Source: Escherichia phage BEU50
Direction: 5' to 3' (one strand)
Length of the DNA: 64,000 bases
Sequence record: OM632671.1
A program made the translations under genes and the position numbers. This document shows, one piece after another, positions 1 through 39,368 of the stretch. Each line of letters starts with the position of its first letter. The first letter of the stretch is position 1. A model generated the notes under the pieces. That model was given only the letters and a program-made list of their open reading frames with translations. It had not been told where the DNA came from and made no database searches.

Positions 1-882
1 TCTAAAATTGACTCATATAACAAAGTTATTAAGATGTATCATGATGGTGGTACATGTCCTACTTGTGCATCACAGTTGCACCAGGGTGATCCTATTGTCT
101 CTAAGATTACCGATAAGCTTCACGAATGTAATCACTCATTCGAGCAACTTACATGTCACAGAGATAATCTGAGTGTCCTAGTGGACGAATATAGAGCTAA
201 TGTTAAGACTAAACAGGACCTTGCATCTGATATTCGTACCAAGAAACAAGCAATGATTGCCACTATTGATAAAGCTAAGAAAGTTAAAGCTGCAATAGAA
301 CAAGCCTCGGCGGAATTTATCGACCATGCCGATGAGATAGCTTTGCTTCAAAAAGAACTTGATAAAATCATTAAAACAAAATCGGATATCGTTCTTGAAA
401 AATACCATCGCGGTATTATCACAGATATGTTAAAAGATTCTGGTATTAAAGGTGCTATCATTAAAAAATATGTGCCTCTGTTCAACAAGCAGATTAACCA
501 TTATCTTAAAATCATGGAAGCTGATTATGTGTTTTCTATTGACGAAGAATTCAATGAATCTATAAAATCACGTGGACGTGAAGAATTCAGTTATGCTTCG
601 TTTAGTCAAGGTGAAAAGGCACGTATCGATATCGCATTGTTGTTTACATGGCGAGATATCGCTGAAAAGGTCTCTGGCGTTAGAATCAATACATTAATTA
701 TGGACGAAGTCATGGATTCCGCGACTGATTCTGAAGGTATTAAAGCTATTTCAACAATTCTTAACTCTCTAACCGATGCAAACGTGTTTATAATTAGTCA
801 CAGAGACCATGACCCACAAGCTTATGGACAACATCTTCAAATGAGCAAAGTTGGACGATTTACTGTAATGAAAGCCTCTTAA
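1..882 (+). CDS. 46: Recombination endonuclease subunit gp46 (SbcC/Rad50-like), C-terminal part; 5' end lies outside the window
   Basis: Frame open from position 1; translation has the Rad50/SbcC-type signature region (FSQGEKARIDIALL ... LIMDEV); synteny directly upstream of 45.2/rpbA/45. Confidence 0.8.
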   Translation, partial: SKIDSYNKVIKMYHDGGTCPTCASQLHQGDPIVSKITDKLHECNHSFEQLTCHRDNLSVLVDEYRANVKTKQDLASDIRTKKQAMIATIDKAKKVKAAIEQASAEFIDHADEIALLQKELDKIIKTKSDIVLEKYHRGIITDMLKDSGIKGAIIKKYVPLFNKQINHYLKIMEADYVFSIDEEFNESIKSRGREEFSYASFSQGEKARIDIALLFTWRDIAEKVSGVRINTLIMDEVMDSATDSEGIKAISTILNSLTDANVFIISHRDHDPQAYGQHLQMSKVGRFTVMKAS

Positions 883-1595
883 TGAGGCTTATATTTACAA
901 TTATCGAAATGCCAACGATGCATATTAGCAGGGATCCCTATTTTATCGCAATGAGGACATTTAATTTTCTTGTCCTCTTTTTTCTTTCTGTTAGGATTTG
1001 ATTTACAGAATTTTATATGTGGCTTTAACGCCGATAACTTAGTAGTTAAGCCACAAAACGGGCAAGAATCTTCTTTCCAAATTTTCGTGGCCATGGTTTT
1101 AATTATTTTATCTTTTGTTTCTTGATCAAGTTTTACTATTTTAGGCGTTGGACCTTGTTTACAATTATCAAAATGCCAACGTCGCATGTTTCCTTCAGTT
1201 CCAGTTAAACCACAATGTGGACAGGTAATCTTTGGTTTATTTTTTGCAGACTCGGACATTTTCTTACGGGTTTCAGCAGTGAATTCTTTATTCTTTTGAA
1301 CTTCTTGATTCTTACGTCGAAGCCATCCAAATAATTTGTTTTTGCTTCTATCTGCTTTAGGAGATGATATGGTCATCATACGAGCGGCATATATTAAAGA
1401 GGCATTATCTGGATGGATTTTTACCAACAGTTGATGTGCCAAATAATGTTCTTCCGGTGTTAAGTCTACTAAGTTTAAAGCATCATCACTTCCACCTAAA
1501 CATTGTGGTATAATGTGATGACGTTCTGTATAACCATCTAAACTTCTTGATTTAGCATTGGTGATAAGCTTTTCGTATATTGAGTTATAATTCAT
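879..1595 (-). CDS. HNH homing endonuclease with three C-terminal zinc-ribbon repeats (Mob/I-TevIII-like)
   Basis: N-terminal HNH motif (TERHHIIPQCLGGSDDALNLVDLTPEEHYLAH); three CPHCG...RWHFDNCK repeats; opposite orientation to flanking early genes; paralogue of 35065..35862 and 61264..62073. Confidence 0.75.
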   Translation of the reverse strand: MNYNSIYEKLITNAKSRSLDGYTERHHIIPQCLGGSDDALNLVDLTPEEHYLAHQLLVKIHPDNASLIYAARMMTISSPKADRSKNKLFGWLRRKNQEVQKNKEFTAETRKKMSESAKNKPKITCPHCGLTGTEGNMRRWHFDNCKQGPTPKIVKLDQETKDKIIKTMATKIWKEDSCPFCGLTTKLSALKPHIKFCKSNPNRKKKEDKKIKCPHCDKIGIPANMHRWHFDNCKYKPH

Positions 1596-1640
1596 TTACT
1601 AAATCCTTATTTGATACAGCAACAGATAAATTGATAAACC

Positions 1641-1648
1641 TATTTATA
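1641..1648 (-). promoter_or_regulatory. T4-type late promoter TATAAATA (minus strand) about 45 nt upstream of the HNH gene
   Basis: Plus-strand TATTTATA is the reverse complement of the late-promoter octamer. Confidence 0.4.
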
Positions 1649-1672
1649 TTGCTTTAATCACGGAGATTTATA

Positions 1673-1864
1673 ATGGCGGAGTATTCAACCGGACAACATC
1701 TTCTCGTTGTCCCTGAAATTAAAAGATATGTTTTGACCAATACGTTTTCAGGTGAAGAACATATTGTTACTGAACAAATGCTCAAATCTGCTTTTAAAGA
1801 TGAGTATAATAAAATAATGTCTAATCGCAATTCCGCATGGACAGTTACCGACTTCTACGAATAA
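1673..1864 (+). CDS. Small early protein at the 45.2 position
   Basis: 63-aa ORF with ATG; position between 46 and rpbA as in T4. Confidence 0.4.
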   Translation: MAEYSTGQHLLVVPEIKRYVLTNTFSGEEHIVTEQMLKSAFKDEYNKIMSNRNSAWTVTDFYE

Positions 1865-1876
1865 GAGAGAAATAAT

Positions 1877-2293
1877 ATGTTTACTACTGCTAAAGGTTTC
1901 ACTGCTGCTGATCTGAAAGTTACTTCTATCCGTACTGACGCTAACCCACATAACCATAATCGTGTTCGTAAAGCATGGGTCCTGCATTGTGATGACGCAA
2001 GTGCTAAAAAACTCCAATCTTTGCCACAAGAAACTCGTTTTATGATTTATGGTTTTATTGATAACGATGTATCTGATATGTGGATTCATCTGATGCGTAA
2101 GCACTATAAAGATTCTATTGAAGCTGGCGGAAAAATCGTTCTTGATAAAGACGGTTCTGAGCGTCTGGAAGATTTCTATTGTGTTGATGCCGACGAACAA
2201 CTAATTGCAGCTGGCGAAATTGTTGCTTCTAAAATTCCAGAATATATTGAATCACTGCCTGAAGCTATTAAAAAGCAGATGGTTGCTGCATAA
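1877..2293 (+). CDS. rpbA: RpbA-like RNA polymerase-binding protein
   Basis: 138-aa ORF immediately upstream of gene 45 (T4 rpbA position); Shine-Dalgarno GAGAGAAA before ATG. Confidence 0.45.
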   Translation: MFTTAKGFTAADLKVTSIRTDANPHNHNRVRKAWVLHCDDASAKKLQSLPQETRFMIYGFIDNDVSDMWIHLMRKHYKDSIEAGGKIVLDKDGSERLEDFYCVDADEQLIAAGEIVASKIPEYIESLPEAIKKQMVAA

Positions 2294-2335
2294 TAAATTT
2301 GTTATAAACTTTGAATTGTCTTGAAAGGAAATAAA

Positions 2336-3022
2336 ATGAAACTGTCTAAAGATACTATCGCTATTCTGAAAAACTTTGCCTCTATTAACTCCGGCATTCT
2401 GCTTAGTCAAGGTAAATTTATTATGACTCGTGCAGTTAATGGCACCACTTATGCGGAAGCAAATATCTCCGATGAAATTGATTTTGACGTAGCACTTTAT
2501 GATTTGAATAGCTTCTTAAGCATTTTGAGTCTAGTGTCTGATGATGCTGAAATTTCAATGCACACTGATGGCAATATTAAAATTGCAGACACACGTTCCA
2601 CAGTTTATTGGCCTGCCGCTGACAAGAGCACCATTGTTTTTCCTAATAAGCCAATTCAATTCCCAGTGGCTTCTGTGATTACTGAAATTAAAGCCGAAGA
2701 CCTTCAACAATTGCTTCGAGTTTCACGTGGTCTTCAGATTGATACAATTGCTATTACAAATAAAGATGGTAAAATTGTTATCAACGGCTATAATAAAGTT
2801 GAAGATTCTGGACTAACTCGTCCTAAGTATTCTTTGACTCTTACCGATTATGATGGTTCTAACAACTTTAACTTCGTAATCAATATGGCTAATATGAAAA
2901 TCCAGCCAGGTAACTATAAAGTAATGTTGTGGGGAGCTGGTGATAAAGTTGCAGCTAAGTTTGAAAGCTCTCAAGTAAGTTATGTTATTGCGATGGAAGC
3001 CGATTCTACCCACGACTTCTAA
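2336..3022 (+). CDS. 45: Sliding clamp gp45
   Basis: Translation MKLSKDT...TRAVNGTTYAEANISD...STHDF matches T4-family gp45 from memory; the ORF track start at 2321 is an upstream TTG, ATG at 2336 follows the RBS AAAGGAA. Confidence 0.9.
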   Translation: MKLSKDTIAILKNFASINSGILLSQGKFIMTRAVNGTTYAEANISDEIDFDVALYDLNSFLSILSLVSDDAEISMHTDGNIKIADTRSTVYWPAADKSTIVFPNKPIQFPVASVITEIKAEDLQQLLRVSRGLQIDTIAITNKDGKIVINGYNKVEDSGLTRPKYSLTLTDYDGSNNFNFVINMANMKIQPGNYKVMLWGAGDKVAAKFESSQVSYVIAMEADSTHDF

Positions 3023-3097
3023 GTCAAAGCTTTACGTTTATTGTGATACGTTTATGGAGGAGAAATCCTCCAGTTTAATGATAATGAGGAAAATTAC

Positions 3098-4060
3098 ATG
3101 ATTACTATCAATTCCAAAGAACACATTCTAGAACAGAAATATCGTCCTTCTTCCATTGACGAATGTATTCTGCCTGCGTATGACCATGAAACATTCAAGT
3201 CTTTAGTATCTAAAGGAAAACTTCCTCATATTATTTTGCACTCTCCTTCTCCTGGTACAGGTAAAACAACCGTAGCAAAAGCATTATGTAACGATATCAA
3301 CGCTGAAATGATGTTCGTCAACGGTTCTGATTGTAAGATTGATTTTGTGCGTGGTCCGTTAACTGCATTCGCTCGTTCAGTCTCAATGGAAGGCAAGCCG
3401 AAAGTTATCGTTATCGATGAATTTGACCGTAGTGGCCTTGCTGAATCACAACGGCACCTTCGTACATTCATGGAAGAATTCTCTAGTAACTGTTCTATTA
3501 TTATTACTGCTAACAACATCGATGGAATTATTGAACCATTACGTAGTCGTTGTCGAGTTATCGAATTCGGACGTCCAACCGAAGAAGATAAAATCTCGAT
3601 GATGAAGAAAATGATTCATCGTATGGTTGAAATCTGTAAGAACGAAAATATCGAAATCGCTGATATGAAAGTTGTTGCAGCTCTGGTTAAAAAGAACTTC
3701 CCGGACTTTCGTCGTACAATTGGACAATTAGACCAGTACTCGTCTAAAGGTGTTCTCGATGCAGGTATTCTGTCTATCGTAACTAATGACCGTGGCACAG
3801 TCTCTGATGTTATCGAAGCAATGAAGAACAAAGATATCAAACAACTTCGTGCATTAGCTCCAAAATATGCTGCAGATTATTCATGGTTCATCGATAAATT
3901 AGTTTCAGAATGTTATGACCAAGTTGCACCTGGTAAAAGTATTATTTCGCTTTACGAAATTGCAGGCGAAAATAATAAGTTTCATGGACTAGCTAGTAAT
4001 ATTGAATTACATGTTATGTATATGCTTCTTCAATTGACTTGTGAACTGACTTGGAAATAA
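3098..4060 (+). CDS. 44: Clamp loader large subunit gp44 (AAA+)
   Basis: Walker [15 protein letters not shown] Walker B, SRC motif ([10 protein letters not shown]); synteny 45-44-62. Confidence 0.9.
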
Positions 4061-4061
4061 T

Positions 4062-4625
4062 ATGAACTTATTCGATGATGACGTCCGGCTTAACGAGCAC
4101 CAAATTGCATGGAAGTCTAATGACGCTGATGCGATTCAAAAATGTGCTGACATGTTTAAAGAAAAACCTGAGAATGAATTCTTTAAAATCATTAATGCTA
4201 TTAATGAAAAGAAATCTATGTCAATTGCTCAGGTCGACTACTCAAAATTTATGGTTGAGAACTCATTATCCCAGTTCCCGGAATGTATGCCAGCTGTTTA
4301 CATGATGAACTTAGTCGGTTCTGAATTAAGTGATGAAGCACACTTCAACTATATGATGGCGGCAATTCCGCGTGGTCGTCGATTCTCTAAATGGGCTAAA
4401 CTAGTTGAAGACACTTCAGAGTTACTAGTTATCAAACTGTTGATGAAACATTACACAATCAACATGAATGATGCTACCGAGTATAAGCGGCTCCTTGAAA
4501 AAAATAACAAGTTGCCAATAGTCCTTAAAGAACTGAAGGCCATGGTCACTGATGAGTTTCTCAAAGAAGTTACAAAAAATGTGAAAGAACAAAAACAATT
4601 TAAAAAATTAGCATTGGAATGGTAA
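4062..4625 (+). CDS. 62: Clamp loader small subunit gp62
   Basis: 187-aa ORF starting 1 nt after gp44 stop; T4 synteny. Confidence 0.75.
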
Positions 4626-4627
4626 AA

Positions 4628-4996
4628 ATGATCGAAATTAAATTGAAGAACCCTGAAGATTTTCTGAAAGTCAAAGAGACTTTGACCCGTATGGGCATCG
4701 CTAATAACAAGGATAAAGTCCTTTATCAGTCCTGTCATATACTCCAAAAGCAAGGTAAATATTACATCGTCCACTTTAAAGAAATGTTGCGTATGGATGG
4801 ACGACAAGTTGATATCGATGGTGAAGACTACCAACGACGTGATTCGATTGCTCAGTTGCTTGAAGACTGGGGCTTGATTGTTATTGAAGACTCTGCTCGT
4901 GAAGATCTGTTTGGCCTGACTAATAACTTCCGTGTTATCTCTTTTAAACAGAAAGATGACTGGACTTTGAAAGCAAAATATACAATTGGTAATTAA
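4628..4996 (+). CDS. regA: Translational repressor RegA
   Basis: MIEIKLKNPEDFLKVKETLTRMGIANNKDKVLYQSCHILQK... closely matches T4 RegA from memory; ATG at 4628 preferred over 4619. Confidence 0.85.
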   Translation: MIEIKLKNPEDFLKVKETLTRMGIANNKDKVLYQSCHILQKQGKYYIVHFKEMLRMDGRQVDIDGEDYQRRDSIAQLLEDWGLIVIEDSAREDLFGLTNNFRVISFKQKDDWTLKAKYTIGN

Positions 4997-5000
4997 AGCA

Positions 5001-5018
5001 ATGGGACTTCGGTCCCAT
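5001..5018 (+). other. Perfect RNA stem-loop ATGGGAC-UUCG-GUCCCAT between regA and gene 43 (no U tract)
   Basis: 7-bp stem with UUCG tetraloop; no downstream T run, so more likely a stability/processing or regulatory hairpin than a terminator. Confidence 0.35.
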
Positions 5019-5077
5019 TTGGAGTATAATAAGTTCATCAACAAACAAAAGACAATAACTCGTCTAAAGGAAATTAA

Positions 5078-7789
5078 ATGAAAGAATTTTACTTAACGGT
5101 TGAACAGATTGGTGATTCAATTTTTGAACGTTACATCGATTCTAATGGCCGTGAACGTACTCGTGAAGTAGAATATAAACCATCACTGTTTGCTCATTGT
5201 CCAGAAAGTCAGGCTACGAAATATTTCGATATCTACGGTAAACCGTGTACTCGTAAGTTGTTCGCTAATATGCGTGATGCCTCCCAATGGATTAAACGCA
5301 TGGAAGATATCGGACTTGAAGCACTTGGCATGGACGATTTCAAATTGGCGTATTTGTCTGACACTTATAACTATGAAATCAAATACGACCATACAAAAAT
5401 TCGTGTGGCTAACTTCGACATCGAAGTAACATCTCCGGATGGGTTCCCTGAGCCGTCACAAGCAAAACATCCTATTGATGCTATCACCCATTATGACTCA
5501 ATTGACGACAGGTTCTACGTATTTGATCTATTGAATTCTCCATATGGTAATGTGGAAGAATGGTCTATCGAAATTGCGGCTAAGCTTCAAGAACAAGGCG
5601 GTGATGAAGTTCCATCCGAAATTATCGACAAAATCGTTTATATGCCGTTCGATAACGAAAAAGAATTGTTGATGGAATATCTCAACTTCTGGCAACAGAA
5701 AACTCCTGTCATTTTGACTGGATGGAACGTTGAGTCATTTGATATTCCATATGTGTATAACCGAATCAAGAATATTTTTGGCGAATCTACTGCGAAACGT
5801 TTATCACCACATCGTAAAACTCGTGTTAAAGTTATCGAAAACATGTATGGTTCTCGTGAAATCATTACATTGTTCGGTATCTCTGTTCTTGATTACATTG
5901 ACCTTTACAAAAAATTCTCTTTTACCAATCAACCGTCGTATTCTCTGGATTACATTTCAGAATTTGAATTGAACGTTGGTAAACTGAAATATGACGGCCC
6001 TATTTCTAAGCTTCGTGAAAGCAATCACCAACGATATATTTCTTATAACATTATCGACGTGTATCGTGTATTGCAAATTGATGCTAAGCGTCAGTTCATC
6101 AACTTGAGCTTGGACATGGGTTATTATGCTAAGATACAGATTCAATCTGTGTTTAGCCCAATTAAAACATGGGATGCTATTATTTTTAATAGCCTTAAAG
6201 AGCAGAACAAGGTGATTCCACAAGGTCGTTCTCACCCAGTTCAACCTTACCCTGGTGCTTTTGTTAAGGAACCTATTCCAAATCGATACAAATATGTAAT
6301 GAGTTTCGACCTTACATCTCTGTATCCAAGTATTATTCGCCAAGTGAATATTAGCCCGGAAACAATAGCAGGAACGTTTAAAGTAGCTCCACTGCATGAT
6401 TATATTAACGCAATCGCTGAACGTCCTTCAGATGTGTACAGTTGCTCTCCTAACGGCATGATGTATTATAAAGACCGTGATGGTGTAGTTCCAACTGAAA
6501 TCACTAAGGTCTTTAATCAACGTAAAGAACATAAAGGTTACATGCTTGCAGCTCAACGTAATGGTGAAATAATTAAAGAGGCATTGCATAATCCTAATCT
6601 TTCTGTTGACGAACCATTAGATGTTGATTATCGTTTCGACTTCAGTGATGAGATTAAAGAAAAGATTAAAAAGTTGTCTGCTAAATCTCTTAATGAAATG
6701 TTGTTTAGAGCTCAACGTACTGAAGTTGCAGGTATGACTGCACAGATTAACCGTAAATTGCTCATCAACTCACTTTATGGTGCACTTGGCAACGTTTGGT
6801 TCCGTTATTATGATTTGCGTAATGCTACTGCAATCACAACATTTGGTCAAATGGCTTTACAGTGGATTGAACGTAAAGTTAATGAATATCTGAATGAAGT
6901 TTGTGGTACAGAAGGTGAAGCTTTCGTTCTATATGGTGATACAGACTCCATTTACGTATCTGCAGATAAAATTATTGATAAGGTTGGTGAATCTAAATTC
7001 CGTGATACCAACCATTGGGTAGACTTCTTAGATAAGTTCGCTCGTGAACGTATGGAACCTGCTATTGATAGAGGTTTCCGTGAAATGTGCGAATACATGA
7101 ACAATAAACAACACTTAATGTTCATGGACCGAGAAGCTATCGCTGGTCCTCCGCTCGGTTCTAAAGGTATTGGTGGATTTTGGACTGGTAAGAAACGTTA
7201 TGCATTAAACGTGTGGGATATGGAAGGAACCAGATACGCTGAACCTAAGCTTAAAATCATGGGTCTCGAAACACAGAAATCTTCGACTCCTAAAGCAGTA
7301 CAGAAAGCTCTTAAAGAATGTATTCGTCGTATGCTTCAAGAAGGTGAAGAATCATTACAAGAATATTTTAAAGAGTTTGAAAAAGAATTCCGTCAATTGA
7401 ATTATATTAGCATCGCGTCGGTATCTTCTGCGAATAACATTGCTAAATATGATGTAGGTGGATATCCAGGACCTAAATGCCCGTTCCATATTCGTGGAAT
7501 TCTGACGTATAACCGGGCTATCAAAGGTAATACCGATGCACCGCAAGTTGTAGAAGGTGAAAAAGTATATGTTCTGCCTTTACGTGAAGGAAACCCATTC
7601 GGTGATAAATGTATCGCATGGCCTTCTGGTACTGAAATCACAGATTTAATTAAAGACGATGTACTTCATTGGATGGACTACACTGTTCTCCTTGAGAAGA
7701 CATTTATTAAACCACTTGAAGGATTCACATCAGCAGCGAAACTCGATTACGAGAAGAAAGCATCTCTGTTCGATATGTTCGATTTTTGA
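5078..7789 (+). CDS. 43: DNA polymerase gp43 (family B), RB69-type, 903 aa
   Basis: Translation matches the RB69 polymerase sequence as I remember it (MKEFYLTVEQIGDSIFERYIDSNGRERTREVEYKPSLFAHC...), exonuclease motifs FDIE and YNIIDV, polymerase motifs SLYPS, YGDTDS. Confidence 0.95.
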   Translation: MKEFYLTVEQIGDSIFERYIDSNGRERTREVEYKPSLFAHCPESQATKYFDIYGKPCTRKLFANMRDASQWIKRMEDIGLEALGMDDFKLAYLSDTYNYEIKYDHTKIRVANFDIEVTSPDGFPEPSQAKHPIDAITHYDSIDDRFYVFDLLNSPYGNVEEWSIEIAAKLQEQGGDEVPSEIIDKIVYMPFDNEKELLMEYLNFWQQKTPVILTGWNVESFDIPYVYNRIKNIFGESTAKRLSPHRKTRVKVIENMYGSREIITLFGISVLDYIDLYKKFSFTNQPSYSLDYISEFELNVGKLKYDGPISKLRESNHQRYISYNIIDVYRVLQIDAKRQFINLSLDMGYYAKIQIQSVFSPIKTWDAIIFNSLKEQNKVIPQGRSHPVQPYPGAFVKEPIPNRYKYVMSFDLTSLYPSIIRQVNISPETIAGTFKVAPLHDYINAIAERPSDVYSCSPNGMMYYKDRDGVVPTEITKVFNQRKEHKGYMLAAQRNGEIIKEALHNPNLSVDEPLDVDYRFDFSDEIKEKIKKLSAKSLNEMLFRAQRTEVAGMTAQINRKLLINSLYGALGNVWFRYYDLRNATAITTFGQMALQWIERKVNEYLNEVCGTEGEAFVLYGDTDSIYVSADKIIDKVGESKFRDTNHWVDFLDKFARERMEPAIDRGFREMCEYMNNKQHLMFMDREAIAGPPLGSKGIGGFWTGKKRYALNVWDMEGTRYAEPKLKIMGLETQKSSTPKAVQKALKECIRRMLQEGEESLQEYFKEFEKEFRQLNYISIASVSSANNIAKYDVGGYPGPKCPFHIRGILTYNRAIKGNTDAPQVVEGEKVYVLPLREGNPFGDKCIAWPSGTEITDLIKDDVLHWMDYTVLLEKTFIKPLEGFTSAAKLDYEKKASLFDMFDF

Positions 7790-7829
7790 TATAATGTCAT
7801 GGACGGTAAACTAATTAAATGAGAGAAAT

Positions 7830-8465
7830 ATGAAAACTACTCCTATTACTATCGCTATTGACGCAATCATAAAACAAGCTTCTTCTTTGGCCGCTATGGC
7901 CAAAGTAATTAGTCAAAACCCTGCTCGTTATAATGCTATTCTAGAAACTCTTCGACGCCCGGGACTTAGTAATTATGAAAGCCGAGTAATTATTACAGGT
8001 GTTGGTAAGAATGCTAATATTGCAACTAAAGCTTCTGAGACATTTGCTTCACTCGGTATCCCGAGTATGTACTTGAACACTGGGCATTATTCTCACGGTG
8101 ATGCAGGATTCATTGCGCCTAATGATGTGTTGATTCATATTAGTCGTTCTGGTAAAACTGAAGAAATGATAGGCGTGGCTAAGCATCTTAAAATGATTCG
8201 ACCGAACGTCAAACAGATTCTGTTGCATTGTAACCCAGACATTCCACAAGAAAATGAAGCCCTTTTTGATTACTCTTTCTGTACAGGCATCGCAGTAGAG
8301 GTTGATGAGAATTCTCTGGCTCCGACTATGTCCACTACATTGTTGTTAGCGCTTATCGATACGTTTGCTATCAACCTTTCGTCTGAACGTGGATTTACCT
8401 CTAATGACTTCCTTAAGTTCCACCCTGGTGGTGCACTAGGTGCCATGTTACGAGGCGAACAATGA
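7830..8465 (+). CDS. SIS-domain sugar-phosphate isomerase, KdsD/GutQ-type arabinose-5-phosphate isomerase catalytic domain without CBS domains
   Basis: Motifs GVGKNANIATKASETFASLG, HGDAG, ISRSGKT, LAPTMSTT, HPGGALG align with the KdsD SIS domain (ATFASTG, HGDLG, ISNSGES, LAPTSSTT, HPGGALG) from memory. Confidence 0.7.
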   Translation: MKTTPITIAIDAIIKQASSLAAMAKVISQNPARYNAILETLRRPGLSNYESRVIITGVGKNANIATKASETFASLGIPSMYLNTGHYSHGDAGFIAPNDVLIHISRSGKTEEMIGVAKHLKMIRPNVKQILLHCNPDIPQENEALFDYSFCTGIAVEVDENSLAPTMSTTLLLALIDTFAINLSSERGFTSNDFLKFHPGGALGAMLRGEQ

Positions 8466-8605
8466 AAGCAATAACAATAGGACTTTTACTATTGATGCTT
8501 GTCATGACTATCTACTGGAGCTTAACGGCTCCAGTAATGATTCCAACACTTGTAATTGGATGGATTATGATTGGACTACAAGCAAAGTATGAATGCTTTA
8601 ACTAG
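8462..8605 (+). CDS. Small hydrophobic membrane protein (47 aa), start overlaps the isomerase stop (ATGA)
   Basis: MKAITIGLLLLMLVMTIYWSLTAPVMIPTLVIGWIMIGLQAKYECFN; below the ORF-track size cutoff. Confidence 0.3.
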   Translation: MKAITIGLLLLMLVMTIYWSLTAPVMIPTLVIGWIMIGLQAKYECFN

Positions 8606-8618
8606 AATAGTGTACAAT
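8594..8618 (+). promoter_or_regulatory. Possible MotA-dependent middle promoter (MotA box TGCTTTA, 12 nt, TACAAT)
   Basis: aTGCTTTAactagaatagtgTACAAT about 30 nt upstream of the 8647 start. Confidence 0.35.
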
Positions 8619-8646
8619 ACTCCTACTTACCAATGAGGACCACAAC

Positions 8647-10332
8647 ATGAAAAAAGCTGTTATTCTTGGTGCTGGACTGGCAACTCGTTTATATCCAATT
8701 ACTCACCATATTCCTAAGGTGCTTGTTAACTATAAACAAGACACTATTCTGAGCAATTTGTATACAATTTATTCTGACCTAGGCGCAGATGAAATTATTG
8801 TAGTAGTTCATTCAAAATTTGCTGAAACTGTTCGAGCTTATTGTGAGCAAGAAGGGTTCAATGTGACTATTCGTACAGTTGATGAAGCGTATGGTTCTGC
8901 TTATGCTCTTGCTAAATTACACAAAGATTTAGACGGCCATAATGTAATTGTTAACTGGTGTGATATTATTCCGGATTTTGGTTCATGGTCTTGGAATGTT
9001 AACGCAATCTATGTTAAGGGTGACGAATGTCGATATAATTTCGACGGTGAAAATATCACTAACGTAGGTTCAACAGGTGGTAATGTTGTAGGAATTTATC
9101 AGTTCAAAGACTGGGAATTCTATATGGGTTCTACTGATGAGGAAATTCATGAATACTGCAAAGGACGTGATTTCGTAGAATTCCTTTACGGCAGCGCATT
9201 CAATAAATCAGAGCTTATGAATCTAATTGATTTAGGTGATATGCCTAAACTTGAAAAAGCTCATGAAGTTCGTGAACTTAATCGTAGTTTTAATGCAGTT
9301 GAAATTGGTGAAGAAACTGTAACTAAATTCGCATTAACCGAACAGGGCCGAGCTCTTCAGAAAGATGAGATTTCGTGGTATTTGAAAGTGAAATCAGATT
9401 CAGTCCCTCAGTTAGTTTCTGTTAATGAAAATAACTTTGAAATGGAACGCATTAAAGGTAAGCCGGCATTTGAATATATTAAATCCAAATCAAGTCTTGC
9501 TCGTCCACAAATTGTTGATGCAATTTTAGATGCACTGAAATTCAGCACAGACACTTATTTTGTAAGTCCTGAAACTGTTCGTCGTGATTTCACTAAAGAA
9601 TTCTATACGAAAGTTATTGATCGTTGTGAAAGCATTCAACCATTGATTGATTCATTTGGTAAAATCACACATGTGAACTACACTAAGATTGGACGTCTGA
9701 AGCCAATGCTGAAACAAGCTTTAGAACACCTTATTCGTTATCATAACCGTTCTCAGGGACAGTACTCTGTTATTCATGGTGACCCGAACTTCAGTAATAC
9801 TATGATTACTGATAACGGCGAAGTCAAATTTATCGACCCTCGTGGATATTTTGGCGAAACCAAGATTTACGGGCCAAAATTGTACGATGAAGCTAAAGTG
9901 CTTTACGCTGTTTCAGGTTATGATGAATTCAATGCTAATCCGACCTGGGGACAGTTTACTATTGATGAAACAACTTGTAATGTGACTATTAACATCAATC
10001 CATTAGTTTACAAATATGGAAAGATGAGTTCGTTTAACGAGTATCATCATTTGGCAGTGGCAATTATCTGGATTGCATTAGGTGGTTATTTCAAGAATAA
10101 TCCACTTAAAGCGGTAGCCGCATATTATAAAGGTATGGAACTTCTGACTAAGCAATTACGTAACATGGGCCGTGTACTTCAGGACGGCTCTATTAGTTAT
10201 GACGTAGCAGAACCTGTAACGGCTACTCTGATTACAAAAAATCCTGGTAAATGGGTACTAACTGATAAAGAAACTGGTGTTTCCTATCGTCCAATCGGTG
10301 GCGATATCACTCATCAATGGGAACGAATTTGA
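8647..10332 (+). CDS. Bifunctional sugar-1-phosphate nucleotidyltransferase (N-terminal) / APH-fold anomeric sugar kinase (C-terminal)
   Basis: N-terminal MKKAVILGAGLATRLYPIT (RmlA/GlmU-type G-x-G-T-R-L motif); C-terminal HGDPNFSNTMITDNGEVKFIDPRGYFG (APH/choline-kinase Brenner motif HGDxxxxN and DxxG). Confidence 0.65.
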   Translation: MKKAVILGAGLATRLYPITHHIPKVLVNYKQDTILSNLYTIYSDLGADEIIVVVHSKFAETVRAYCEQEGFNVTIRTVDEAYGSAYALAKLHKDLDGHNVIVNWCDIIPDFGSWSWNVNAIYVKGDECRYNFDGENITNVGSTGGNVVGIYQFKDWEFYMGSTDEEIHEYCKGRDFVEFLYGSAFNKSELMNLIDLGDMPKLEKAHEVRELNRSFNAVEIGEETVTKFALTEQGRALQKDEISWYLKVKSDSVPQLVSVNENNFEMERIKGKPAFEYIKSKSSLARPQIVDAILDALKFSTDTYFVSPETVRRDFTKEFYTKVIDRCESIQPLIDSFGKITHVNYTKIGRLKPMLKQALEHLIRYHNRSQGQYSVIHGDPNFSNTMITDNGEVKFIDPRGYFGETKIYGPKLYDEAKVLYAVSGYDEFNANPTWGQFTIDETTCNVTININPLVYKYGKMSSFNEYHHLAVAIIWIALGGYFKNNPLKAVAAYYKGMELLTKQLRNMGRVLQDGSISYDVAEPVTATLITKNPGKWVLTDKETGVSYRPIGGDITHQWERI

Positions 10333-11078
10333 TACATTATCTCTACAAAACTACTAATCTTATAAACGGTAAAGTTTATTTAGGAATGCACTCGGCTGAA
10401 GAAGCCGAGCCTTTAGATTTATATAAAGGTTCTGGTAAATTATATAAAAAGGCTGAAAGGAAATACGGTAAGGAAAATTTTCTTAAAGAAATCATTTCCT
10501 ACCATAGCTCAAGAGAAGAATTAAAAATAGCTGAAAAGGCTCTAATAACATTAGACATAGTTAAAGACCCGAATTATTACAATCTTAAAACTGGTGGCGA
10601 AGGTGGTTCTGACGGGTTATCCCAAAGGTCCAAGGATAAAATTTCTAAGGCAAATAAAGGACGTTTAGTTGGTGATAAAAACCCAAGATGGGGTAAAACT
10701 TTGTCAGCTGAATCTATAGCTAGGGGTAAAGAAAAGCACAGGAGGTATGGTAAACCTGCATTACATGGTCTAAAGATTAATGTAGATGGCAAATATTATG
10801 AATCCTGTCGGGAAGCGGCTAAAGATTTGGGTATATCTTCTGCCACGATTCAAAAGAGAGTAAAATCGCCTAAATATCTTAATTATCGATATCAGGACGA
10901 AAGCAAAAATGCTCACAAGTCTCAAAAATTTGTTAAAATAAACGAAAATTACTATGAATCTCTTAGGATAGCTGAAAAGAAAACGGGTATTCCTAGAAAG
11001 CGTATAGCTGATAATATTAAAAATTCTATTGAAGGATATTGCTATGAAACCATTACATCTTTGCGTGGACGTCGATGA
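10317..11078 (+). CDS. GIY-YIG homing endonuclease (seg-like) with NUMOD-type DNA-binding repeats
   Basis: N-terminal YLYKTTNLINGKVYLGMH (GIY-YIG core); repeated KISKANKGR / GK-x-x-S-x-E motifs; overlaps neighbours at both ends as typical of free-standing HEGs. Confidence 0.65.
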   Translation: MGTNLIHYLYKTTNLINGKVYLGMHSAEEAEPLDLYKGSGKLYKKAERKYGKENFLKEIISYHSSREELKIAEKALITLDIVKDPNYYNLKTGGEGGSDGLSQRSKDKISKANKGRLVGDKNPRWGKTLSAESIARGKEKHRRYGKPALHGLKINVDGKYYESCREAAKDLGISSATIQKRVKSPKYLNYRYQDESKNAHKSQKFVKINENYYESLRIAEKKTGIPRKRIADNIKNSIEGYCYETITSLRGRR

Positions 11079-11418
11079 TTGTATAACAGAGTGGAATAAC
11101 AATCGTGATTACGTGAACTTCAAACCAGACGTCGAAATGGTGTCTGCCATTAATGCCCTGTATGAGGCAGGGCATACCATAACGCTTTACACTGCTCGCG
11201 GTATGAAGTCAGTAGGTCCTGGTCGTATAGCAATTGACATTCTCCCAAGTCTGATTCAGAACTTGGCAAACATTGGCTTGAAGTACCATAATTTGCTAAC
11301 ACATAAACCAGTATATGATTGGATTATCGACGACAAAGCTATGCGTCCTGACGAATTCAAAGCTCTTATGAATAAAGGCGAATTCGAAACATTTAAATCA
11401 TATAAACCGAATCTATAA
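11044..11418 (+). CDS. HAD-superfamily phosphatase (small, KdsC/GmhB-like)
   Basis: Motif I LCVDVDDCIT (DxDx[T/V]); about 125 aa; ATG at 11044 preferred over 11029. Confidence 0.55.
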   Translation: MKPLHLCVDVDDCITEWNNNRDYVNFKPDVEMVSAINALYEAGHTITLYTARGMKSVGPGRIAIDILPSLIQNLANIGLKYHNLLTHKPVYDWIIDDKAMRPDEFKALMNKGEFETFKSYKPNL

Positions 11419-11464
11419 TAATTTAAGTAAGACCTGCAAAAACCATCGCATCAATTAACGTGAG

Positions 11465-12637
11465 ATGCAAAAAAAAATGAATACTTTTAAAATCGGAACG
11501 AATTTTGATTTAGCTCTTCTTGATAAAATCGTAGAGCTCAATAAAACTTATCCTAATAGCTTGATAAACGAAGTATACGGCTCTACAAGAGAAATGGCTT
11601 TTGTAGCAGCCAGACCTGATTTTAGGCTTCCTGACGTTGACAAAAAGATGTTAGAAGATTACGTTAAACGTTGTAACGAATTAGGTATTTGCTTTAACTA
11701 TACACTCAACACGATAAATCCTGGTTCAAAAAGAGAACTAGTTGAGTGGAAGAAGAAAGCTATTCAGGATTATGTTCAGTATCTTTGGTCAATAGGCGTA
11801 TGGCGTATTACTATCGCTAACCCTGTTGTTATGGAAATTGTTCGTGAAGTCAATAAAGACATTGAGATTGAAGTTTCAACAATTCTACATGTCGATGCTG
11901 TAACTCAAATCAAATACTTGCATGACCAATATAATATCAAAAAGGTCTGCTGTGGAATTCATAAGAACCGTTCAGTTTCTTTCCTGAAGCGTGCAGCAGA
12001 GTTTTGCAATAAGAACAATATAATATTTGAAGTTCTTGTAAATGAGTTCTGTTCTAATGCTGGTAAAGGGTATACAACACATTGTAGCTATCGTGACTCT
12101 TGCTATATTTTCCATAGTACTGATGTTACAGCTGATGATGCTAAATCCTTAAACGGATATCCAATGCAGCACTGTATTAAAGCTCGTGATACAGACCCAT
12201 TTAACTGGTTGAGAACTCGTTTTGTTCGTCCTCAAGATTTGAAACTTTATAATGATATTGGTATCACTCAATTCAAAGTTTCAGGACGTACAGGTAGCAC
12301 AGACTACATTTTGAAAGTTCTTGAAGCATACGCTTCTGAAAAGTTTGAAGGTAATTTGTTAGAACTGTGGAAGCCTTTAGAGACTATTTTCACTCTTGAA
12401 AACGAAACTGAGTTTTCACATACGGTAAATATTGAAACCTCTTTGTTAGATGGCTTTTTAGAAAAAAGGTGGTTCAGACATCCAGATTTCGATTGTGCTA
12501 ATGAAATCTGCGGGACGACGTGTACATATTGTGAAAGATATTATAAACGTCAGTTATCTAAAAATGGGTTATCAGAAAATTCTATATCTATTATTGATAT
12601 AACTAACTCTGACGACGCTTTGAGGTACCCGGAATGA
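11465..12637 (+). CDS. Cys-rich protein with U32-family-like features (function unknown)
   Basis: EVLVNEFCSNAGKGYTTHCSYRDSC and FKVSGRTGSTDY resemble U32 family signatures (E-x-F...C...C and K-I-E-G-R-x-x-S-x-x-Y); C-terminal CANEICGTTCTYCERYY cysteine cluster; weak, from memory. Confidence 0.3.
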   Translation: MQKKMNTFKIGTNFDLALLDKIVELNKTYPNSLINEVYGSTREMAFVAARPDFRLPDVDKKMLEDYVKRCNELGICFNYTLNTINPGSKRELVEWKKKAIQDYVQYLWSIGVWRITIANPVVMEIVREVNKDIEIEVSTILHVDAVTQIKYLHDQYNIKKVCCGIHKNRSVSFLKRAAEFCNKNNIIFEVLVNEFCSNAGKGYTTHCSYRDSCYIFHSTDVTADDAKSLNGYPMQHCIKARDTDPFNWLRTRFVRPQDLKLYNDIGITQFKVSGRTGSTDYILKVLEAYASEKFEGNLLELWKPLETIFTLENETEFSHTVNIETSLLDGFLEKRWFRHPDFDCANEICGTTCTYCERYYKRQLSKNGLSENSISIIDITNSDDALRYPE

Positions 12638-12873
12638 TTTCTAGAAAAACTTTTAATTATAAACTTAATGAAGAGATTTTGACTATGAAACTGAACACCA
12701 ACGAACAAATTCTTAAAAAGGCCCTTATGGGCCTGTTTGAAACCAAAGCGGCTAAAGTGATTAAAGAACCTATTCAATTGGAATACTATGCTGATGCATT
12801 TCTTCATAGTGTTCTTGGAAGTATCGATGCTGAAGCTTTACGTTATATCAACATTGCCAAGAAATTCAAATAA
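12634..12873 (+). CDS. Hypothetical protein (79 aa)
   Basis: ORF with ATG overlapping upstream stop. Confidence 0.3.
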   Translation: MISRKTFNYKLNEEILTMKLNTNEQILKKALMGLFETKAAKVIKEPIQLEYYADAFLHSVLGSIDAEALRYINIAKKFK

Positions 12874-12896
12874 GCTTTACGAATTGAGTATATAAT
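12874..12896 (+). promoter_or_regulatory. Possible middle promoter for gene 42 (GCTTTA MotA-box-like, 11 nt, TATAAT)
   Basis: aaGCTTTAcgaattgagtaTATAAT 20 nt upstream of the gene 42 ATG. Confidence 0.35.
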
Positions 12897-12915
12897 AAAT
12901 TGTATTGAGGTAAAC

Positions 12916-13632
12916 ATGGGAAAACATAACACAATGAAATATATCAAAGCCGCAGATTTTCAAGCCGCATTTAAAGCAGTCAATCGTGAAATTTTAGAAA
13001 ACCCGGAATTCGTAACTGATTCTCGTATTGGGCGTTGTAATGAAATTGGGTCTATGACAGTAGTTGTTGACACTCCATCATCATTCAAAATGACCGACCC
13101 ACGTATTAACCGCATCTCTTATGAATATGCCGAAGACTTCTGGAAGTTTATGATTTCTGGTGGTACCAACGCAGAAGAAGCGTTTAAGGCATATCCTAAT
13201 GTCGCTAAATTTATTTCTAAACCAAAATCAGATGTTTTGCCGGCGAACTTCAACACTTTCTATGGTCCTCGCATTGCGGCCCAATTACCAGCTCTTCTAA
13301 AAGAACTTAAAGAGAAGCCTAACTCTCGAAGAGTTGTGTTCCAAATTCTAGAAAGTTCTGATCAGGCTTTGCTTGATTCAGACGAAACGCTTGAATATCC
13401 ATGTACTGACTCAGTGACTTATTATATTCGTGATGGTAAGCTTTATACCCACTGTCATATGCGTTCTCAGAACTGTGCTGTTGTTATGCAGTTGGATTTT
13501 TATCTCCAAGGAAAATTACTTCATTATATCGCTAACGAATGTGGTGTAGAAGTTGGTGATTATACTCATACCATGGTAAGTGCCCATGTGTTTGAACGTG
13601 ATTTTGATTATGTTAAAGGATTCCTTGACTAA
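12916..13632 (+). CDS. 42: dCMP hydroxymethylase gp42-like (thymidylate synthase fold)
   Basis: TS-fold motifs (RRVVFQILESSD, EYPCTDSVTYYIRDGKLYTHCHMRSQN, H..VFERD); T4 position between 43 and uvsX. Confidence 0.7.
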   Translation: MGKHNTMKYIKAADFQAAFKAVNREILENPEFVTDSRIGRCNEIGSMTVVVDTPSSFKMTDPRINRISYEYAEDFWKFMISGGTNAEEAFKAYPNVAKFISKPKSDVLPANFNTFYGPRIAAQLPALLKELKEKPNSRRVVFQILESSDQALLDSDETLEYPCTDSVTYYIRDGKLYTHCHMRSQNCAVVMQLDFYLQGKLLHYIANECGVEVGDYTHTMVSAHVFERDFDYVKGFLD

Positions 13633-14531: not shown

Positions 14532-14532
14532 A

Positions 14533-15081
14533 ATGGCTAAAATTATTTTAGTAGATGGCCCGGATAATGCTGGTAAAACAACTTTCATTAATGACATAAT
14601 GGAAATTAGTGAAAGATATGTAAAGATTGATTTCCCTAAACGAACAGTTGATGGACGTTTCGATGTTAAGTCTCGAAATGAAGTTGGCTGTTTCGAAACG
14701 ATGTTGAATTATTTAGACCCTACTAAGATTTATCTGTTAGACCGTGGATATATTAGTAACTGGGTTTACGGACGTATTCGACAAGATGCGGACTCTGTTC
14801 TTGACGTTTATGAACAGGATTATGTTCGTCTTTGCCAAAACCATGATGTGTTCACAATTATTTTAACACGTAACGAAATGACTGAAAGTTTTGAAGACGA
14901 CCTTATTACTTTGTCTTCATTCGGTTTTAATACAGTCATTTCACATTTTGAAGAGTTTGCAATTCATAACAAAATCCAAACGTATCAATTACTTAATCAT
15001 GATGGTGCTAACAAAGTTATAGGATTTAATGCAAGCGAACGTAATGTTTTGATTACAGAAATCATCAAATGGGCTCGTTAA
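14533..15081 (+). CDS. P-loop nucleotide/nucleoside kinase-like protein
   Basis: Walker A VDGPDNAGKTTF (thymidylate/dNMP kinase-like), 182 aa. Confidence 0.5.
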   Translation: MAKIILVDGPDNAGKTTFINDIMEISERYVKIDFPKRTVDGRFDVKSRNEVGCFETMLNYLDPTKIYLLDRGYISNWVYGRIRQDADSVLDVYEQDYVRLCQNHDVFTIILTRNEMTESFEDDLITLSSFGFNTVISHFEEFAIHNKIQTYQLLNHDGANKVIGFNASERNVLITEIIKWAR

Positions 15082-15179
15082 GAGCCATTTAAAGTTTTAA
15101 ATGCTGTATAACCCTTAGTATATAATCATCTTATCTTTTAAACATGAGTAAAATATAATGATGCCTATGGAAAAATACA

Positions 15180-16686: not shown

Positions 16687-16695
16687 GGAGTTATC

Positions 16696-18138: not shown

Positions 18139-18144
18139 TAAAAA

Positions 18145-18163: not shown

Positions 18164-18167
18164 CGGG

Positions 18168-18197: not shown

Positions 18198-18226
18198 GTA
18201 CTTACACCAACCAAGAGGAAAACATT

Positions 18227-37310: not shown

Positions 37311-39368
37311 ATGATTATCGAAACGGCTAAAGAAACGATTATTGGTTCTGGTGGTAAGAGCACAGCATTCACTATTCAAGGCAATAGCAAAGTTTATAAG
37401 ATTTTGTCTAATGACCTTTATACAAACAAAGAATTGGCTTGTGTACGTGAATTAATCACAAACTGTATCGATGGACAAATTCTTAATGGTTGCACTGATA
37501 AGTTTATTGTTCAGGCTCCAGGTCGTTTAGACCCACGTTTTGTAGTTCGAGACTTTGGTCCTGGTATGAGTGATTTCACCATTCGAGGTAATGACGAAGA
37601 GCCAGGAATCTATAACTCATATTTTGCTTCAACTAAAACATCGAGTAATGATTTCATTGGTGGATTCGGACTCGGCTCTAAAGCTCCATTAGCATATACT
37701 GATACGTTTAACATTACTTCTTATCATAATGGTGAAGTTCGTGGTTATGTAATTTATCAAGATGACAGTGGTCCACAAATTAAGCCAACCTTTGTAGATA
37801 AGATGGGCCCTGATGACCGTACGGGTGTAGAAGTAGTTGTGCCTGTTAACCCGGAAGATTTTGAAAAGTTCGCATCTGAAATTGCGTATGTTATGCGTCC
37901 TCTCGGCGATATTGCAGAAGTTCGTGGTGTTAAAGATATCAAATACTTCCCGGAATTCGATGATGTTTATTTAGCCAAGGAAGCTCCATGGGGTGAACGT
38001 GGTAATATCATGGCTGTTTATGGTGGTATTGTATATCCAATCGGAAGTGTTATTAAAGAACAAACATGGATGATGACGCGATGCACTACAGCTTATATCA
38101 AATTCCCTATGGGTGAACTAGATGTAGCCCCGTCTCGTGAAGCATTGTCATTTGATAAACGTACAGTAGCAAATATTCATAAACGTGTTGCAGAAATTGA
38201 TGCAAAATTATTTGCTGAAGATTCTAAGAAATGGATTGATTGTGAATATCCACGTCATGTATTCCGTGAAATCGATTCTCTTGGTTACTCTGCTCGTAAA
38301 TACATGGAAAAAGCCGGTTCTAATATTGAATCACTGAAATATTCTAAAGAACAACTAACTTATTCTGAGTTGTACAAACGTTTTAAAATGGGACCTGAAT
38401 GGTGCAACCTTGGCGTTGTATATGATATCGTTTCAGATCCACGACTTCGTCGTATTCGTGAAAGCGGAAGCTCGTCTGCAACTATTTCAATTAATAGCCT
38501 GCTAGGTATTAGTCGTAAGCATATTGATATTGTTATTGACGATGTGAAAGGCCGCGTACCAATGATGCGTGCTCTGAACGATGCTTTGACTTCCACCGAT
38601 GCATCAACACTCGTTGATAAGGTTCCTTCCGGACGGGGTAGTAGCGTATTATTCATTAACCCGGAAGATGAAGTTGCAATGAAACTTCTGGAACGATTAA
38701 AGGTTATTTTCGCTGGTGATAGCCTTAAATTTTATAAGACCTCTGAAATTCTTGCATTAGTTAAACCATGGATTGAAGTTAAAGAACGTTCATCGCAGCC
38801 TCGTCCTAAATCCCCAAGTGCTCATCGGTTCTTTAAGAATGAAAACGATGTTTGGGTATCAGAAGATCTCTTTATTCCGGCCGGTAAAGCTGATGAGATT
38901 CAAGGTTATGTTGTAATTCGTAATCGTTCTAACGCTGAATGTCTTGACGCAGATAAAGGTTGGTTGAACTATGATTCTAATTTCTTGACTCGTATTGCTG
39001 ATTTGTCAGGTATTAAAGAGTTCACTGTAGTCCGTCCACAGATTGCTAAGAAAGTTCGTAAACTTGGTGAAGTAGAATGCTTGTTCGAAAAATCAATTAA
39101 TGACTATATTACGCTAATTGATAAAGTGGATTATGATGAGTATGTATCACCAAGTCGTAGAGCACAGCCTTATTTGAATCATATTACTCGTAACGAAGAG
39201 CTTAACTTCCTTAGTAAGTATTTTAGCTCTAAGAACAAAGAAATCAGTAAAGACTTTGCAAAACTCTCAACAGTAAATAATCGCTGGGGATGGAATCGAT
39301 TCGCAGGTGCTGATAACAGAGACCTGAACAGGAAGTTAGAATTGTGCTTAAAGAGGACTCTTTTGTAG
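37311..39368 (+). CDS. rIIA: rIIA-like protein (GHKL ATPase fold), possibly C-terminally truncated at a breakpoint
   Basis: N-terminal MIIETAKET...[15 protein letters not shown] (GHKL motif I-like), GGFGLGSK (G-loop); 685 aa versus about 725 aa recalled for T4 rIIA; no rIIB follows. Confidence 0.55.

Follow-up and report, generated by a model that had tools for sequence, protein, structure and literature searches.

Genes and hairpins of the window

The window analysed here is a stretch of 64,000 nucleotides from Escherichia phage BEU50 (sequence record OM632671.1). Collinearity with Escherichia phage a20, a Mosigvirus of the RB69-like group, extends over bases 1-39346 at 98.8% identity; their T4 counterpart runs from gene 46 through rIIA at ~70-75% identity. 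From 39348 on, the sequence consists of T4-type (Tequatrovirus-like) blocks with ~78-98% identity to T4 and abrupt junctions between the blocks, and the junction-spanning rIIA product of the window had no record in the public assemblies searched. Almost all genes lie on the + strand, which is the direction of early and middle transcription, and the non-coding share is ~7%. Gene calls around the features described below combine PHROGs scans with the annotations of relatives. A scan of the window for TTCG loops with complementary flanks yielded seven hairpins with perfect stems, each named below by its first base:

5000-5019, + strand: regA 3' hairpin AAUGGGAC-UUCG-GUCCCAUU, 8-bp stem, 3 nt past the regA stop codon (4994-4996) and upstream of gene 43
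16387-16406, + strand: hairpin UCCCCUUC-UUCG-GAAGGGGA, 8-bp stem, past the uvsX stop codon and within the start of gene 40
18142-18163, + strand: gene 41 3' hairpin AAAGGAGAC-UUCG-GUCUCCUUU, 9-bp stem, directly past the double stop TAATAA, at the boundary of gene 41 and a gene of unknown function
23753-23774, + strand: C(UUCG)G hairpin, 9-bp stem, at the boundary of soc and a gene of unknown function
35861-35878, + strand: gene 39/homing-endonuclease 3' hairpin AAGCUCC-UUCG-GGAGCUU, 7-bp stem, overlapping the stop codon TAA (35860-35862), between a homing endonuclease gene inserted after gene 39 and a gene of unknown function
44540-44557, + strand: C(UUCG)G hairpin, 7-bp stem, at the boundary of rI.-1 and a mobD.5-like gene
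62716-62729, + strand: C(UUCG)G hairpin, 5-bp stem, at the boundary of nrdB exon 2 and denA (endonuclease II)

An earlier sequence-only reading had listed UUCG hairpins at six of these sites. All six are borne out by direct reading of the sequence and by the scan as perfect Watson-Crick stems closed by a C-G pair, but their extents needed correction (23753-23774 had been placed one base off, and two stems are longer than given), and the seventh hairpin at 16387-16406 had been overlooked. A C-G pair closes the loop at all seven sites, which therefore fall into the C(UUCG)G class. The description of the hairpins as near-identical is true of the 14-mer GGGACTTCGGTCCC, which occurs at 5003-5016 and 62716-62729 only; the remaining stems differ from one another and share just CUUCGG. 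Recurrence at gene boundaries, which the same reading had also proposed, holds throughout, as all seven hairpins start 0-35 nt past a stop codon.

Frequency, strand bias and folding of the hairpins

Counting stems of at least 5 bp, the window contains seven C(UUCG)G hairpins on the + strand and none on the - strand, while 200 dinucleotide-preserving shuffles gave a mean of 0.03 hairpins and a maximum of 2. The CTTCGG hexamer as such has no strand bias (12 copies on the + strand, 13 on the - strand); it lies inside a stem of at least 5 bp in 7 of the 12 copies on the + strand and in 0 of the 13 on the - strand. TTCG is not enriched in the window, with 474 occurrences seen and 488 expected, and UUCG is the most frequent tetraloop among the + strand hairpins of the window. 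On the strength of the TTCG counts and the shuffles, chance or base composition was rejected as the origin of the hairpins. Six of the seven fall within the small non-coding share of the window. In its local context, every one of the seven is the fold of lowest free energy (z = -2.1 to -3.4), and their nearest-neighbour energies range from -7.5 to -13.5 kcal/mol with the tetraloop bonus included. A search of Rfam at gathering score gave no match anywhere in the window.

U tracts, terminators and early promoters

We ranked the hairpins as terminators with a rough d'Aubenton-Carafa-type score, which used modern energy parameters and serves for ranking only. The soc hairpin 23753 came first (~53), followed by 44540 (~35); 5000, 18142 and 35861 scored 2 to 4, and 16387 and 62716 fell to about -20. 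This order mirrors the U tracts. The U run right after the full stem is U7 at 23753 and U5 at 44540, and counted from the GC core the number of U is 9 and about 6-7, respectively, so that the U-rich stretch of ~7-9 nt of an intrinsic terminator is present at these two sites. It is lacking at 16387, which has no U run of any kind, and at 62716, which has only the interrupted U-rich stretch ACUUUAUU. At 5000, 18142 and 35861 the tracts are short or interrupted, making these hairpins borderline as terminators. The earlier statement that only some of the hairpins are followed by U tracts was thus correct, with clear runs just at 23753 and 44540. A separate consensus scan for promoters and terminators over bases 1-20000 showed no excess over shuffled sequence, terminator-like sites included; it did not list the + strand UUCG hairpins and was uninformative.

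Motifs of the form GTTTAC-N17-TAnnnT, typical of early promoters, begin 5-17 nt past hairpins 18142, 23753 and 44540 and are absent at the other four. The corresponding features are:

18168-18197, + strand: early-promoter-like GTTTACA-N17-TATGAT, just past the gene 41 hairpin
23753-23781, + strand: predicted soc 3' intrinsic terminator, AAGGAAUCC-UUCG-GGAUUCCUU followed by U7, with the top terminator score of the seven
23791-23820, + strand: early-promoter-like GTTTACA-N17-TAAGAT, past the predicted soc terminator
44540-44562, + strand: predicted rI.-1 3' intrinsic terminator, AGUCUCC-UUCG-GGAGACU followed by U5, from terminator score and fold
44573-44602, + strand: early-promoter-like GTTTACT-N17-TACTAT, past the predicted rI.-1 terminator

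By sequence, 23753 and 44540 are predicted canonical intrinsic terminators. They resemble the Rho-independent terminators of E. coli in having a GC-containing stem, a stable loop and 5-7 U downstream of a stop codon, whereas the other five hairpins have no sufficient U tract. With a T4-type early promoter behind the U run, each of the two would insulate an early transcription unit from the one before it. The arrangement at 18142, 23753 and 44540 (stop codon, stem-loop, sigma-70-like early promoter, Shine-Dalgarno (SD) sequence and ATG in one intergenic spacer) is also that of the PeSL cassettes of phages RB49 and phi1 (PMC2839356) and is not found at the other four sites. The PeSL stems, however, pair a run of G with a run of C and lie variously within or around the promoter, while here a UUCG hairpin precedes the -35 element.

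The position of all seven hairpins so close behind stop codons raises the question whether all of them just terminate transcription, without Rho and with unequal efficiency, and have no further role in stability or translation. The U runs are canonical at two sites and partial at three, and such runs also accompany the uvsX hairpin in two of three distant relatives and many of the gene 41 hairpins, as this explanation would have it. E. coli RNA polymerase requires a U tract at intrinsic terminators, however, and 16387 and 62716 offer no usable one and score far below the rest. Moreover, no promoter motif lies in the interval between hairpin and AUG at 35861 and 62716; the genes downstream of these two hairpins therefore need read-through. 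The conserved SD-hairpin-AUG geometry at denA, described below, also speaks against termination as the only function, and we regard the uniform terminator explanation as unlikely. The literature searched contained no usable map of T4 3' ends or terminators.

Hairpins after regA, gene 41, soc, gene 39 and rI.-1

Conservation of the individual sites was assessed on IMG/VR loci. The regA hairpin has a free energy of -11.7 kcal/mol in its local context and is followed by the weak U tract UUUGGAG. All 20 loci in which regA and gene 43 are adjacent have a hairpin at this position. Among the 12 distinct hairpins that they represent, seven have a UUCG loop, and UACG, UCCG, GAAA, UUAC and CGUG also occur. 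In most of the 20 loci the hairpin is followed by the conserved sequence GGAGTATAAT and then by the gp43 operator hairpin. Two further elements thus lie between regA and gene 43:

5025-5030, + strand: TATAAT, a -10-like element within GGAGTATAAT, kept in nearly all loci with regA directly before gene 43
5050-5065, + strand: gp43 translational operator hairpin AGAC-AAUAACUC-GUCU (16 nt, RB69 type), an element separate from the regA hairpin

The TATAAT sequence may be part of a putative promoter for gene 43. We also considered the regA hairpin as the MotA box (GCTT core) of a middle promoter of gene 43. The spacing from MotA box to -10 element in middle promoters is 11-13 bp, and this candidate, at ~15 bp from the -10 element, was rejected. 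The gp43 operators of T4 and RB69 have been described (PMC3014915).

The gene 41 hairpin is followed by the tail UUUCGGGGUUU, consistent with its borderline terminator score. Of 42 gp41 loci, 19 have a hairpin here; T4 has none after its gene 41. The eight distinct hairpins at this site are built on six different stems, and seven of them have a UUCG loop; many have U runs and then a GTTTAC-type early promoter. After soc, a hairpin with a U run was found in all 19 loci, with a GTTTAC-type motif next in most; again seven of the eight distinct hairpins have a UUCG loop.

Behind the 35861 hairpin the tail reads CAUUUUAAUUUU, and the next ATG is at 35905. In phage ST0 the identical stem, with the loop UUCU, stands directly after gene 39. 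The genes upstream of this hairpin are of three different kinds, all converging on it. The rI.-1 hairpin is identical in five close relatives. Stem variation was absent both among the relatives of rI.-1 and among those of the gene downstream of 35861, all of which are too close for it.

The hairpins 5000, 18142 and 35861 are, judging from their stems and tails, probably leaky terminators or barriers to 3' exonucleases. Most likely they would do both, stopping some polymerases, letting others read through and opposing 3'-to-5' exonucleases, so that a stable 3' end would be fixed on the upstream message.

A uvsX 3' hairpin within gene 40

The 16387 hairpin starts 34 nt past the uvsX stop codon (16350-16352), within the 5' coding part of gene 40, where its stem and loop cover the codons for SPSSEGE. 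Its free energy in local context is -16.1 kcal/mol. A hairpin of at most -8 kcal/mol occurs at the same site in 42 of 47 related loci, with 18 distinct hairpins among them; counted by distinct sequence, the frequency is 41 of 46 (89%), compared with 6.5% of 598 control windows taken from the same loci.

The hairpin could be a by-product of the Pro-Ser-x-Glu-Gly codons of gp40, which are partly self-complementary, and not a selected RNA structure. The codon series CCN-UCN...GAR-GGN yields four of five complementary positions automatically, and the PSxEG motif is retained in many relatives. Yet the pairs formed between two wobble positions stay complementary and covary (CCC with GAG in T4, CCU with GAA here). 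Variants of gp40 with an unrelated peptide keep strong hairpins made from different sequences, such as AAGCUCCCCUU-GAAG-AAGGGGAGUUU, GGAAUCCUC-UGAU-GAGGAUUCC and GAGGCUCC-GAAA-GGAGCUUC. Furthermore, three distant relatives have no overlap of uvsX and gene 40, and there the hairpin stands in intergenic sequence directly past the uvsX stop codon, with a loop of UUCG or GAAA and a U run in two of the three. Together with the excess over the control windows, the wobble covariation, the unrelated peptides and the non-coding copies led us to reject the by-product explanation, which we consider hardly credible.

From this comparison, 16387 is best described as a 3' hairpin of uvsX that gene 40 overprints, since the reading frame of gene 40 runs across the uvsX stop codon. 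For T4, an in vivo RNA 3' end just downstream of a stem-loop in the region upstream of gene 41 is noted in a passage of Kim et al. 2025 (PMC12152347), which cites Hinton 1989 (J Biol Chem 264:14432 and 14440). The T4 CUUCGG hairpin orthologous to 16387 has a free energy of -15.9 kcal/mol. No other strong simple hairpin occurs in that 358-nt region, from which we infer that this one is the stem-loop drawn in PMC12152347. The 16387 hairpin shares with the T4 stem-loop, as it appears there, the place inside gene 40 at ~35 nt past the uvsX stop codon and the CUUCGG loop; it differs by one compensatory base-pair change. Most likely, 16387 would give a protected RNA 3' end and so lower the message for the gene 41 helicase relative to that for uvsX.

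A hairpin between SD sequence and start codon of denA

The last hairpin of the window begins 4 nt past the nrdB stop codon and is part of a compact junction:

62710-62740, + strand: nrdB/denA junction, with the SD sequence AAGGA (62710-62714), which shares bases with the nrdB stop codon, then the hairpin GGGAC-UUCG-GUCCC (62716-62729), an 8-nt spacer and the AUG of denA (62738-62740)

The linear distance from SD sequence to AUG is 23 nt, above the ~15 nt beyond which an SD sequence is too distant, and folding of the 14-nt hairpin would cut it to ~9 nt, restoring a usable spacing for denA; the same hairpin would also cap the nrdB message. The layout recurs in 15 further distinct related sequences. 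In the alignment of these with the window (16 rows), 89% of the cells are paired, three pairs have double changes (13 cells), and none of 500 shuffles reached as high a value. Sequences in this set that come from phages close to T4 carry a GCAA or GUAA loop. A conserved layout combined with compensatory changes in the stem is what a split initiation region should leave behind.

Such regions are known from T4 genes 38 and 25, in which an intervening hairpin brings the SD sequence back to a functional distance from the AUG (PMC3014915). The denA site has the same order of SD sequence, short stable hairpin and AUG, and the gene 38 site (T4 159629-159640) is even of the CUUCGG class, with the hairpin GGGC-UUCG-GCCC. 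The T4 sites differ from it in the gene that they serve; at denA, in addition, the hairpin lies near the nrdB stop codon and may double as a 3' cap. A function as a split ribosome-binding site of denA fits 62716 better than the stability or processing role that had been proposed for several of the hairpins, a proposal that probably missed a translational role here. The literature searched, whose reach did not extend to key older papers, contained no paper on an SD-hairpin-AUG arrangement at denA.

A further difference from the T4 split sites is a weak extra helix that may pair the SD sequence in the window. The minimum-free-energy fold pairs UAAGG with CUUUA around the 62716 hairpin, for about -2.9 kcal/mol. 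In this modelled fold the additional helix could partly mask the SD sequence instead of presenting it. The extension is not conserved among relatives.

Relation to the T4 CUUCGG hairpins and selection on RNA

CUUCGG hairpins are known as a class for the unusually high thermal stability of their RNA and for the pausing of reverse transcriptase at them. In the complete T4 genome we counted 18 C(UUCG)G hairpins with a stem of at least 4 bp, of which, by the gene tables, 17 are on the local gene strand. Four of the seven hairpins in the window are positional orthologues of T4 hairpins, and at three of these four sites the differences are compensatory. After regA (T4 29952-29969), T4 has the arms AAGGGGC/GCCCCUU and the window AAUGGGAC/GUCCCAUU. 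Inside gene 40 (T4 22329-22348), the T4 segments CCC...GAG correspond to CCU...GAA, both changes being synonymous and mutually compensatory. After soc (T4 15303-15324), a C-G pair of T4 is replaced by A-U. Only after rI.-1 (T4 58797-58814) is the hairpin identical in the two phages.

Hairpins of this kind were found in T4 mRNA by Tuerk et al. 1988 (PNAS 85:1364), as cited in passages of PMC4371310 and PMC8948821, which also describe them as abundant in intergenic regions of T4 and serving various processes; one passage of PMC8948821 gives the class pattern as X2-8 CUUCGG Y2-8. All seven hairpins of the window have the sequence features of the class, namely a UUCG loop closed by C-G, a stem of 5-9 bp and a place on the sense strand. 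They also share its phage group and mostly intergenic location, with six of the seven non-coding and the window matching Mosigvirus and Tequatrovirus genomes. Unlike the T4 set, their stems carry the compensatory changes described above, and T4 lacks the copies that follow genes 41 and 39; conversely, some T4 copies, for example the bypass hairpin of gene 60 and the one at the gene 38 start, have no counterpart in the window. The hairpins of the window are real, non-random and biologically meaningful members of the T4 CUUCGG class, a phenomenon already known because the class was described in T4 in 1988. The sequence-only reading did not recognise this well-known class.

Could the palindromes act instead at the level of DNA, as sites of recombination and module shuffling in the manner of PeSLs or as protein-binding sites, with RNA folding incidental? 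Three of them do form cassettes of stop codon, hairpin, early promoter and SD sequence like those of RB49 and phi1, the 35861 hairpin is the exact point of convergence of three different upstream genes, and hairpins have been gained or lost between lineages, for instance after gene 41. The UUCG loop, however, is always on the sense strand (all seven copies here, none on the antisense strand, and 17 of the 18 T4 copies), which argues against a DNA cruciform or a symmetric protein site, as neither would show a bias. The loops that take the place of UUCG in relatives (UACG, UCCG, GAAA and GCAA) are RNA-stable UNCG and GNRA tetraloops, and some orthologues contain G-U pairs. A G-U pair would be an A-C mismatch on the other strand, which again argues for RNA and not DNA. 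We therefore find an explanation at the DNA level very improbable, while noting that a role in recombination could coexist with one in RNA. Altogether, the kept positions, the drift of stems that remain paired, the exchange among stable tetraloops and the loop on the sense strand point to selection on RNA structure, and not on DNA sequence.

Proposed roles of the hairpins

We conclude with considerable confidence that the seven elements are C(UUCG)G RNA hairpins of the T4 kind at the 3' ends of cistrons, and that the role of each is set by what follows it. The extra-stable tetraloop would make the folding of even a short stem quick and dependable while the RNA is being transcribed, and effects on termination, stabilisation and translation, as we infer them from the sequences, would then depend on the U tract, promoter or start codon next to it. 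A role in RNA stability or processing rather than termination, as the sequence-only reading had favoured for several hairpins, is plausible for 5000, 18142, 35861 and 16387; for the predicted terminators 23753 and 44540 that reading put the emphasis wrongly. The T4 RNA 3' end noted above, behind a stem-loop in the region upstream of gene 41, fits such a role. So does an analogy with E. coli RNAs terminated by Rho, in which, according to a passage of PMC6061677, stable stem-loops lacking a U tract stand shortly before the steady-state 3' ends and shield these from PNPase and RNase II. These stem-loops are a model for the four U-poor hairpins, although they belong to host transcripts and that passage notes no particular tetraloop.

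More speculatively, and with more doubt than confidence, we propose that two of the sites are conserved devices as yet undescribed at the level of the subfamily. The uvsX hairpin, kept through T-even-like divergence despite gene 40, would be a tunable site of RNA 3'-end formation or attenuation, connected with Rho and GoF in T4, and would set the amount of gene 41 helicase message. The SD-hairpin-AUG arrangement at denA would add a third conserved split ribosome-binding site to the two at genes 38 and 25, and would link the translation of endonuclease II with the end of the nrdB message. The subfamily-wide presence of the uvsX hairpin inside gene 40 and the denA arrangement may go beyond the literature consulted.

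As a discovery the hairpins carry little weight, being orthologues or new copies, in relatives of T4, of the T4 hairpin of 1988. What is gained is a clean annotation, with two predicted terminators and their early promoters, three probably leaky boundary hairpins, one intragenic uvsX hairpin and one hairpin at the denA start site. The comparative lesson is that position and structure are kept while the sequence drifts and other stable tetraloops substitute for UUCG. The gene 40 and denA sites would be good small test cases for the control of relative expression within long read-through transcripts.

A minor observation concerns the sequence of the stems, several of which contain GGAG; T4 intergenic UUCG stem-loops holding GGAG have been reported to be RegB-resistant (PMC1702504).

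Sequence around the regA, gene 40 and gene 39 hairpins

The junction between regA and gene 43 carries, in addition to the regA hairpin (5000-5019), the following element.

5050-5065: translational operator hairpin of gp43, the DNA polymerase; AGAC-AAUAACUC-GUCU, 16 nt, RB69 type (PMC3014915)

The AUG of gene 43 lies 13 nt downstream of this operator, and its loop, AAU(A/C/U)ACUC, is kept in relatives. Immediately 3′ of the regA hairpin we found GGAGTATAAT (5021-5030), which is retained in nearly all phages whose regA abuts gene 43. Judged by its sequence, GGAGTATAAT with GGAG ahead of it is possibly a −10-like element and would then be a candidate gene 43 promoter; the regA hairpin sits where a −35 or MotA box would be, and the usual spacing is not matched.

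The loop of the gene 40 hairpin (16387-16406) is not absolutely constrained, since UUUG replaces UUCG in a 99%-identical relative (locus L087, IMGVR_UViG_3300030021_000008, 492-511), whose gp40 accordingly has Leu in place of Ser (SPSLEG). The hairpin after gene 39 has a UUCG loop in the window, whereas phage ST0 has UUCU. The same GGATGTCCTAA plus hairpin is reached by three different upstream coding sequences (window 35050-35878; related-phage loci L186-L188; locus L001, 34663-34690), namely gene 39 itself, a gene for a homing endonuclease and one further sequence. The hairpin is the homology boundary for insertions at this place.

Other intergenic signals

Hairpins with loops other than UUCG also lie between genes.

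3055-3072, + strand: UGGAGGA-GAAA-UCCUCCA, between genes 45 and 44
21611-21632, + strand: GGCCUUAAA-UUAA-UUUAAGGCC, ahead of gene 61
33180-33195, + strand: AAGGGC-UUAG-GCCCUU followed by a U run, ahead of gene 39
51040-51055, − (late) strand: GGAGCC-GCCG-GGCUCC followed by U6, between genes 35 and 36

At the place matching the hairpin ahead of gene 39, T4 has a UUCG loop in contrast to the UUAG of the window. Motifs fitting the T4-type early promoter consensus, GTTTAC-N16-19-TAnnnT, number 16 on the + strand versus 5 on the − strand of the whole window, and many appear to lie in intergenic spacers.

18602, 19173, 19603, 19914, 25272, 29790, 31297, 40380, 45385, 56101, 63148, + strand: examples of the motif

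Composition of the window

Positions 1-39346 are 98.8% identical to phage a20, that is, Mosigvirus-like, and the rest consists of successive T4-type blocks corresponding to scattered parts of the T4 map, in the order vs.6 to tk; nrdC; gene 49; nrdD; genes 36-35-34; rnh to gene 33; nrdA; nrdB to rnlA. Essential genes, 32 and 59 among them, are left out of this chain.

39346-39348, 42446-43010, 45762-45766, 46680-47063, 48399-49268, 50206, 57726-57727: patchwork positions

The first junction truncates the rIIA reading frame (37311..39368), and a search of public assemblies found no product of this junction-spanning frame on record. Short IMG/VR contigs of metagenome 3300030021 are identical at 98-100% to parts of the window. 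A chimeric assembly, or several contigs joined end to end, is the probable origin of the window, rather than a single genome.

The nrdB gene is split.

60444-62711: nrdB, with exon 1 at 60444-61133 and exon 2 at 62178-62711
61264-62073, within nrdB: complete gene for an I-TevIII-like HNH intron endonuclease, 269 aa

No Rfam match to a group I intron reached the gathering score in the window. The endonuclease gene is intact here, whereas the I-TevIII-type gene of T4 is defective.
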